Below, piece by piece: positions 23,244 through 23,426 of a stretch of DNA of 64,000 nt. The stretch lies in assembly GCF_003334405.1 (NCBI RefSeq), contig NZ_QOWM01000006.1, one strand, 5' to 3'. Origin of the DNA: Escherichia coli. GTDB taxonomy: Bacteria > Pseudomonadota > Gammaproteobacteria > Enterobacterales > Enterobacteriaceae. Each line of letters begins with the position of its first letter. Positions within the stretch are counted from its first letter, which is position 1. The notes beneath the pieces are model-generated. The model was not told the origin of the DNA, did not search any database, and worked only from the letters and a program-made list of their open reading frames with translations. The position numbers and the translations under genes were made by a program.

Positions 23244-23329
23244 CCCTCTCCCTGTGGGAGAGGGCCGGGGTGAGGGCATCAGCGCGCACGTTCACCCTCA
23301 CCCTAACCCTCTCCCTCAAGGGAGAGGGG
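23244..23329. repeat. cluster of three GC-rich palindromic hairpins (GGGAGAGGG / GGGTGAGGG type)
   Basis: H1 CCCTCTCCC (23244-23252) / GGGAGAGGG (23256-23264); H2 GGGTGAGGG (23268-23276) / CCCTCACCC (23295-23303); H3 CCCTCTCCC (23307-23315) / GGGAGAGGG (23320-23328). Confidence 0.6.
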
Positions 23330-23426
23330 ACCGATCGAGCACAAATTTTGAGAGATATCTTCTTCTGTCTTGTAACAGAAGAACAGAAAATCGGGCTTTT
23401 GCGCCTGAATATTGCGGAGAAAAAGC

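Follow-up and report, generated by a model that had tools for sequence, protein, structure and literature searches.

The described systems closest to the hairpins upstream of mrcB, the Escherichia coli gene for the major peptidoglycan synthase PBP1b, are dispersed intergenic repeats and structured enterobacterial leaders, such as the ompA 5′ stem–loop and the HtrA (degP) thermometer. Among the repeats, the BoxC motif has a literature, spread over the names BoxC, PIT, TMECO and HPGQ, that reportedly also includes Bergler 1992, the work of Bachellier in the 1990s, and Hoyne and Maher 2000 and 2002. BoxC was rediscovered as the potential intrastrand triplex (PIT) element and is the same as TMECO, which has 23 copies in E. 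coli MG1655, always intergenic, of a type A with the loop TTA and a type B with the loop CCG; these include five close pairs in which type-A and type-B units are inverted relative to each other (Holder 2015, PMC4666352). BoxC sequences were then found again as the putative G-quadruplex motifs GGGAGAGGGTTAGGGTGAGGG (HPG1) and GGGAGAGGGCCGGGGTGAGGG (HPG2) (Kaplan 2016, PMC5100583). By circular dichroism and nuclear magnetic resonance, BoxC-type motifs form an intrastrand triplex or a G-quadruplex in vitro (PMC4666352, PMC5100583). Here we analyse the hrpB–mrcB spacer in a 64,000-nucleotide (nt) stretch of E. coli DNA (contig NZ_QOWM01000006.1; hereafter the window), to which positions refer unless MG1655 is named. 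We conclude that the spacer probably holds two independent elements, a known BoxC pair and a separate, conserved hairpin of the mrcB leader, each with the role proposed for it below.

A catalogued BoxC pair in the hrpB–mrcB spacer

The window is K-12-like, and its positions convert to those of MG1655 by an offset of +141303. The hrpB coding sequence in the list of open reading frames (ORFs) spans 20757–23231 on the + strand, with the end of its stop at 23231, which is MG1655 164534; the MG1655 annotation gives hrpB as 162105–164534 and the mrcB start as 164730. In the window, the mrcB ATG lies at 23427–23429 (+ strand), preceded by the Shine–Dalgarno sequence GGAG at 23416–23419. A first-pass annotation of the spacer, made from the letters alone, had described GC-rich arms beginning 13 nt after the hrpB stop and a fourth hairpin about 45 nt before the mrcB start, and it located all of these correctly. 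CCCTCTCCC occurs at 23244–23252 and 23307–23315, and GGGAGAGGG at 23256–23264 and 23320–23328; GGGTGAGGG at 23268–23276 pairs with CCCTCACCC at 23295–23303, and, in the fourth hairpin, TTCTTCTGT at 23360–23368 pairs with ACAGAAGAA at 23375–23383. Counted with its complement, CCCTCTCCC has four occurrences in the 64-kb window, all within this spacer (0.2 expected; 0 of 100 shuffles). The GC-rich arms are thus present, but their description as three tandem palindromes has to be replaced: they belong to two inverted copies of a three-block unit, made of a C-block and two G-blocks, with an 18-nt spacer between the copies. Together the two copies form one 27-nt imperfect inverted repeat and two local hairpins.

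Judged by its letters, the stretch 23238–23332 is a composite of one type-B unit on the + strand and one type-A unit on the − strand of the BoxC/PIT/TMECO/HPGQ family. The type-B unit (HPG2) runs from 23238 to 23276 (+) and reads TTTTCT-CCCTCTCCC-TGT-GGGAGAGGG-CCG-GGGTGAGGG. It is followed by the inter-unit spacer (CATCAGCGCGCACGTTCA, 23277–23294, with no strand assigned), which forms the tip of the long hairpin, and by the inverted type-A unit (HPG1) at 23295–23332 (−), which reads GGTCCCCTCTCCC-TTGA-GGGAGAGGG-TTA-GGGTGAGGG. The assignment to types follows the second loop, which is CCG at 23265–23267 on the + strand and TTA on the − strand (TAA at 23304–23306). Both units fit a pattern of about 37 nt: CCCTC(T/G)CCC, a loop of 3–4 nt, GGGAGAGGG, a 3-nt loop and GGGTGAGGG.

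The locus is already known, because two papers in Nucleic Acids Research catalogue it. Table 1 of Kaplan 2016 lists, for hrpB/mrcB, HPG2 no. 5 with its midpoint at 164569(+) and HPG1 no. 6 with its midpoint at 164608(−) (PMC5100583); these convert to 23266 and 23305, which coincide exactly with the midpoints of the two motifs. A search of 5426 complete E. coli genomes characterizes the 101-nt element as a dispersed repeat, with a median of 12 matches per genome and up to 26, in 5337 of the genomes. Eleven further MG1655 units, from seven other loci, align in register with the two window units and agree with them in architecture and loop type, and every MG1655 copy that we examined is intergenic. 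The type-B unit shares its architecture with the type-B units at ygfF–gcvP, alx–sstT and lldD–trmL, and the type-A unit matches the consensus of eight further MG1655 type-A copies. The consensus of the MG1655 units is TCCCCTC(G/T)CCCC-N4-GGGAGAGGG-TTA-GGGTGAGGG for type A and TTTTC.CCCTC.CCC-N3-4-GGGAGAGGG-CCG-GGGTGAGGG for type B. The arrangement of a type-B unit with an inverted type-A unit also recurs in MG1655, at ygfF–gcvP, alx–sstT and fepB–entC. Compared with published BoxC elements, the window pair therefore has the same three-block unit, loop types, inverted A and B pairing, intergenic multi-copy spread and instability among strains; its inter-unit spacer is 18 nt long, compared with 29 nt at ygfF–gcvP and alx–sstT, and nothing essential differs.

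The closest comparison outside BoxC is with the REP/BIME (PU) repeats. Both kinds are dispersed, GC-rich, palindromic, intergenic, often placed after stop codons and transcribed, and the stable stems that they form in RNA can mark out mRNA 3′ ends and shield them. BoxC is nevertheless another sequence family, and we know of no link between it and RayT/TnpA(REP). REP identity was tried for the GC-rich part and rejected, as no GCCGGATGCGGCG-type match with up to two mismatches occurs in 23232–23346.

The repeat is gained, lost and rearranged

To describe how the locus varies, we used a 499-nt query of it, which is covered to at least 80% in 3536 of the 5426 complete E. coli genomes and to less than 80% in the other 1890. 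The latter give two-piece alignments that are about 100 bp shorter, so about 35% of complete E. coli genomes lack the BoxC pair. An alignment of representative E. coli alleles shows several forms. A sequence type 131 (ST131) strain and another strain have an empty spacer of 93 nt. In O111:H8, a 64-bp deletion between two direct GGGAGAGGG repeats has left a single hairpin, an instance of the ‘palindrome effect’ already described (Holder 2015, PMC4666352). O145 has a 12-bp deletion and USMARC-49610 a 12-bp duplication. In the enterotoxigenic strain ETEC L7 (L007, L7_E1373) the whole composite is reverse-complemented, with 97 of 117 positions identical in that orientation and 85 of 126 in the forward one. 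As a separate observation, in some E. coli with the opposite-orientation composite (L007; E69, L013; and L012) the type-B unit adjoins the leader (…CCCTCTCCCACAGGGAGAGGGAGAAAAGCAA-TTTTGAGAG), and the same junction is seen in Enterobacter asburiae, E. soli and E. wuhouensis; shared ancestry, independent insertion or inversion may underlie it.

Related species vary in the same way. The empty 93-nt spacer is found in E. albertii, E. whittamii and Escherichia sp. MOD1, and the pair is also missing from Salmonella and most Citrobacter. BoxC 9-mers lie upstream of mrcB in 31 of 80 Enterobacteriaceae species; some genera have none, and up to 8–11 such 9-mers crowd a single spacer in four of the loci (L060, L064, L082 and L084). 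In the same spacer, REP-like sequences of the GCCGGATG type are found in Salmonella and Citrobacter, and several species of Enterobacter, Leclercia, Lelliottia and Phytobacter carry a hairpin with a T-run. The hrpB–mrcB spacer could be described as a landing pad for varied intergenic repeats, all of which lie between the hrpB stop and TTGAGAGA. From these alleles, the repeat at mrcB appears to be an unstable passenger that strains can dispense with and whose presence next to the gene is incidental: it has been gained, lost, duplicated and inverted, and in places partly deleted.

A conserved and covarying stem–loop in the mrcB leader

The fourth hairpin behaves differently. The first-pass annotation had grouped it with the repeats; it proves instead to be a separate, single-copy, conserved and covarying stem–loop of the mrcB leader. 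We took the 110 nt that precede mrcB in 80 Enterobacteriaceae species, each located through its MrcB protein, and aligned them. Of the 94 columns of the alignment, 28 are invariant and 31 nearly so, and they define a leader block of about 80 nt (23347–23426, + strand) that consists of TTGAGAGAT(A/T)TCTTCTT, helix 1, GA(G/A)AAUC, helix 2 and GUUGCGGAGA(A/G)AAAGC; its 3′ end reads GTTGCGGAGA(A/G)AAAGC-ATG. The block starts directly after whichever repeat fills the spacer, and directly after the hrpB stop where the spacer measures 75–80 nt. Helix 1, which is the fourth hairpin (23360–23383, +), has 9 bp and a 6-nt loop in E. coli. Helix 2 (CGGGC-UUUUGC-GCCUG, 23392–23407, +) is paired in 94% of the alignment cells. 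In Klebsiella pneumoniae ATCC 13883 (L062), hrpB and mrcB lie about 17 kb apart, with type II secretion genes among those between them, and the leader is kept directly upstream of mrcB.

The outer pairs of helix 1 are nearly invariant, whereas its inner five pairs vary between genera and remain complementary: CUGU/ACAG in Escherichia, CUGC/GCAG in Kosakonia, CCUCU/AGAGG in Raoultella, UCAC/GUGR in Enterobacter and UCGGC/GCCGA in one Enterobacter species. At the pair formed by alignment columns 23 and 32 we counted GC 38 times, AU 15, GU 8, UA 7 and UG 6, and at columns 24 and 31 CG 45 times and UA 26. Over helices 1 and 2, 92.5% of cells are paired, compared with 51–62% when the partner is slid by 1–3 columns. 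Double-sided changes, which involve six pairs of helix 1, amount to 95 cells against 31 ± 7 in shuffled alignments, and none of 500 shuffles reaches the observed values. The covariation score is 0.289, compared with 0.07–0.13 after sliding. Finally, G·U wobbles outnumber A·C mismatches by 103 to 18 overall and by 72 to 17 in helix 1 alone. Because G·U pairs so far outnumber A·C, the stem is better explained as RNA on the mrcB sense strand than as a DNA operator.

A covariance model built from this alignment has a single match in the 64-kb window, at 23345–23438 with 108 bits. It also finds the Cronobacter leader with 81 bits, and those of Yersinia and Hafnia marginally (E ~0.03–0.05) but at the correct position; the Mixta, Serratia and Proteus leaders were not detected with it. 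By these measures, the leader is conserved across the Enterobacteriaceae and appears more weakly recognizable in Cronobacter, Yersinia and Hafnia. At the corresponding position in Yersinia, Proteus, Klebsiella, Salmonella and Buttiauxella, folding gives a hairpin whose 5′ arm is rich in pyrimidines and whose 3′ arm is rich in purines. Such a hairpin can be seen by eye in both Proteus and Mixta and is part of the minimum-energy fold in Proteus but not in Mixta; in Serratia, no equivalent was seen. In the Cronobacter dublinensis 582 locus (L101), a (GC)n run of at least 40 nt at about 1000–1043 interrupts the end of hrpB; the assembly is a draft, and the run is probably an assembly or scaffolding artefact.

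No described family accounts for the leader. A search of 22900–23800 against Rfam 15 with E values up to 10 gave only microRNA-type matches to the palindrome, far below threshold, and none on 23345–23438; the searchable literature yielded nothing relevant on regulation of mrcB or ponB at the RNA level. We also considered a helix that would sequester the Shine–Dalgarno sequence (23395–23400 with 23421–23426) and rejected it: 76% of its cells are paired, which is no better than in shuffles, and its inner pairs are broken in most species.

RNA folds and transcript ends at the locus

The spacer region 23232–23430 folds at −94.9 kcal/mol (z = −6.0 against shuffled sequence). The minimum-energy fold of the spacer is one long nested hairpin and not three hairpins in tandem; computed for 23232–23346, the nested form has −74.2 kcal/mol and the form with three local hairpins −66.6 kcal/mol. 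The mutually exclusive long-range and local pairings that the first-pass annotation had envisaged are thus both available to the RNA. The reason lies in the repeat itself: each unit has one C-rich and two G-rich 9-mers, so an inverted pair can adopt local hairpins or, alternatively, a single long one. The switch-like geometry is an intrinsic property of the BoxC repeat and was not shaped for mrcB.

A published RNA 3′ end coincides with the end of the pair. Adams 2021 reports a Term-seq end at MG1655 164636(+), which is position 23333 of the window, 5 nt downstream of where the long hairpin has its base; it is listed with the flanking sequence ...GGGAGAGGGGACCG / ...CTCAAGGGAGAGGGGACCG and was retained by the authors’ filter only because a transcription start site (TSS) lies 20–200 nt upstream (PMC7815308). 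A consensus scan for intrinsic terminators, requiring a GC-rich stem and a direct U-run, found no terminator-like site in 23000–23600; the BoxC stem is followed by GACCGAUCGAGC and helix 1 by CAGAAAAUC. In the reading that we favour, the repeat, when included in transcripts from hrpB or from starts further upstream, forms a very stable RNA hairpin that would most likely act as a barrier to 3′ exonucleases, in the manner of REP, or cause weak pausing or termination. Either activity would account for the RNA 3′ end 5 nt past the base. The suggestion in the first-pass annotation that the hairpins might simply be REP-like terminators or mRNA stabilizers therefore came close to the truth, in that they form a known dispersed repeat with an RNA end at 23333. 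Beyond what has been published on BoxC, the locus adds its series of alleles, the two orientations and this coincidence with a Term-seq end.

Published 5′ ends assigned to mrcB all lie upstream of the leader block and have low read counts. One TSS-seq end at MG1655 164235 (40 reads; Kim 2012, PMC3415461) falls at 22932 (+), which is within hrpB, 495 nt before the ATG; the 51-nt promoter string given there matches 22882–22932 exactly. The same study places the K. pneumoniae mrcB TSS 296 nt upstream of the gene, at position 905 of our K. pneumoniae locus, well before the conserved block. Two further ends, at 164551 (5 reads) and 164574 (12 reads), are listed in supplement file 7 of Cho 2014 (PMC3923258) and fall at 23248 and 23271 (+), inside the first BoxC unit; no canonical −10 element is visible by eye upstream of them. 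None of the datasets covered places a 5′ end within the leader block or beyond it, and the supplements of Cappable-seq and SMRT-Cappable-seq have no entry for the hrpB–mrcB locus. Since the mapped ends lie upstream of the repeats or inside them, the repeats can be part of mrcB-sense transcripts.

Weighing the alternatives

The first-pass annotation read the hairpins as a possible structural switch in front of mrcB. Kaplan 2016 suggests such switching for HPGQ motifs in general (PMC5100583), and applied to this locus the idea would be that PBP1b expression is controlled by the BoxC pair in the mrcB 5′ region, which would take the form of a hairpin, long hairpin, G-quadruplex or triplex. In its favour are the two alternative folds, both very stable, the ion-dependent switching of these motifs from G-quadruplex to hairpin or back seen in vitro by circular dichroism (PMC5100583), and 5′ ends that allow the pair to sit in mrcB-sense RNA. 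We nevertheless regard it as quite improbable, and the annotation’s idea of a dedicated mrcB switch is not upheld. The pair cannot be a conserved switch for this gene because it is absent from about 35% of E. coli and otherwise rearranged; most related species lack it too, and mrcB and its leader are kept without it. Both orientations occur at this very locus, and elsewhere the repeat adjoins unrelated genes with no consistent distance or orientation. In the earlier tests of PIT elements, as far as they are summarized in PMC4666352, reporters revealed neither promoter nor terminator activity, and footprinting in vivo did not reveal a stable triplex. Another alternative, that the conserved block is a short upstream ORF (TTG at 23348 to TGA at 23438–23440) whose translation controls mrcB, can hardly be sustained. 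The E. coli TTG frame does run through the block with no stop and terminates 11 nt beyond the mrcB ATG, and in 69 of the 80 species no in-frame stop falls within the aligned stretch. However, the other 11 have in-frame stops, the spacing between TTGAGA and the ATG differs from genus to genus by +1, −2, +3, +4 and +7 nt, no Shine–Dalgarno sequence precedes the TTG, and conservation is at the nucleotide level, third codon positions included, with the variable part changing by compensatory pairs. Non-triplet indels and in-frame stops together rule out an upstream ORF as a candidate. A 68-codon TTG-initiated ORF that passes through both the BoxC pair and the leader (23234–23440, +) is mechanical, and its frame is not conserved.

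A more serious competitor, although we consider it unlikely, is that the fourth inverted repeat acts as DNA: it would overlap the mrcB core promoter, with TTGAGA as the −35 element and the −10 element in the loop, as an operator or promoter-spacer element whose conserved outer half-sites TTCTT/AAGAA would bind a dimeric regulator. Shimada 2014 found a peak of RpoD holoenzyme in the hrpB–mrcB spacer by systematic evolution of ligands by exponential enrichment (SELEX), and predicted in silico the hexamers of a σ70 promoter at 23348–23376 (+): TTGAGA at 23348–23353, a 17-nt spacer and TGTAAC at 23371–23376. That binding in vitro, the invariance of the −35-like TTGAGA in all 80 species and the near invariance of the outer stem TTCTT/AAGAA favour a promoter or operator. 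So does the hairpin with a T-run that lies, terminator-like, directly before TTGAGAGA in several genera; it would point to a promoter within the block, whose transcript would be too short to carry helix 1, and it is the main argument for such a promoter. Against it, TGTAAC lacks both key bases (A2 and T6), a −10 with both at a spacing of 16–18 nt occurs in only 1 of 80 species, which led us to reject TTGAGA-17-TGTAAC as a conserved promoter, and 76 of the 80 match no more than three of six bases at that spacing. As another −10 candidate, GA(G/A)AAT is conserved as a hexamer, but its −35 matches only two of six bases in 56 of 80 species, and it was rejected as well. A promoter consensus scan of 23000–23600 found no site, and no published 5′ end in the datasets covered falls within the block or beyond it. 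Protein recognition of DNA also leaves unexplained why the inner 5 bp vary with complementarity kept, and the G·U excess over A·C is what a plus-strand RNA would give.

Several observations count against our own reading of a BoxC pair beside an RNA leader, and these include the TTGAGA invariance, the RpoD binding and the terminator-like hairpins just described. Helix 2 is conserved but shows only one-sided changes (AU or GU at the pair of columns 49 and 69) and no double-sided ones; the lower extension of helix 1 (GAUUU with GAAUC) fits the alignment, again with no double-sided covariation; and the E. coli leader, folded by itself, is no more stable than shuffled sequence (z = −1.2). At the repeat, the Term-seq end has a weak signal (score about 987) from a single condition, the PIT reporter results summarized in PMC4666352 do not favour termination, and the 5′ ends at 164551 and 164574, with their low counts, may be processing products or ends made at a stable structure.

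Other features of the window

A scan of the window at the Rfam gathering thresholds returned three families, all unrelated to these hairpins: the HtrA (degP) 5′ untranslated region (UTR) thermometer at 39541–39586, the t44 RNA upstream of rpsB at 48457–48543, and CssrA at 49382–49491.

Implications for mrcB

The GC-rich part of the spacer is a catalogued selfish or unstable repeat and should not be read as mrcB regulation; the locus offers instead a clean natural case of BoxC gain, loss and inversion. Next to it, we tentatively propose that the fourth hairpin may be the core of an undescribed cis-regulatory RNA of about 80 nt, specific to mrcB and traceable into the Yersiniaceae and Hafniaceae, in which two stem–loops and invariant single-stranded stretches would govern how stable the PBP1b message is, how it is processed or how it is translated. 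Helix 1 would most likely act as RNA within the mrcB 5′ UTR, where the stem–loop would stabilize the message or tune its translation, the precise role being our inference. Processing could take place at the conserved A/U-rich GAGAGAU|UUC just 5′ of helix 1, a stretch that we take to resemble an RNase E site. Like stabilizing 5′-UTR stem–loops and other structured leaders, the fourth hairpin is gene-specific, lies at a fixed distance upstream of the start codon and is kept by covariation on the sense strand; it differs from them in having no Rfam family and in a stem that does not include the Shine–Dalgarno sequence.

PBP1b is regulated post-translationally by LpoB. If the proposal is true, the leader would add a layer of post-transcriptional control to a major peptidoglycan synthase, and a covarying stem–loop about 45 nt upstream of the mrcB start in 80 species is a concrete, if modest, new lead towards it.

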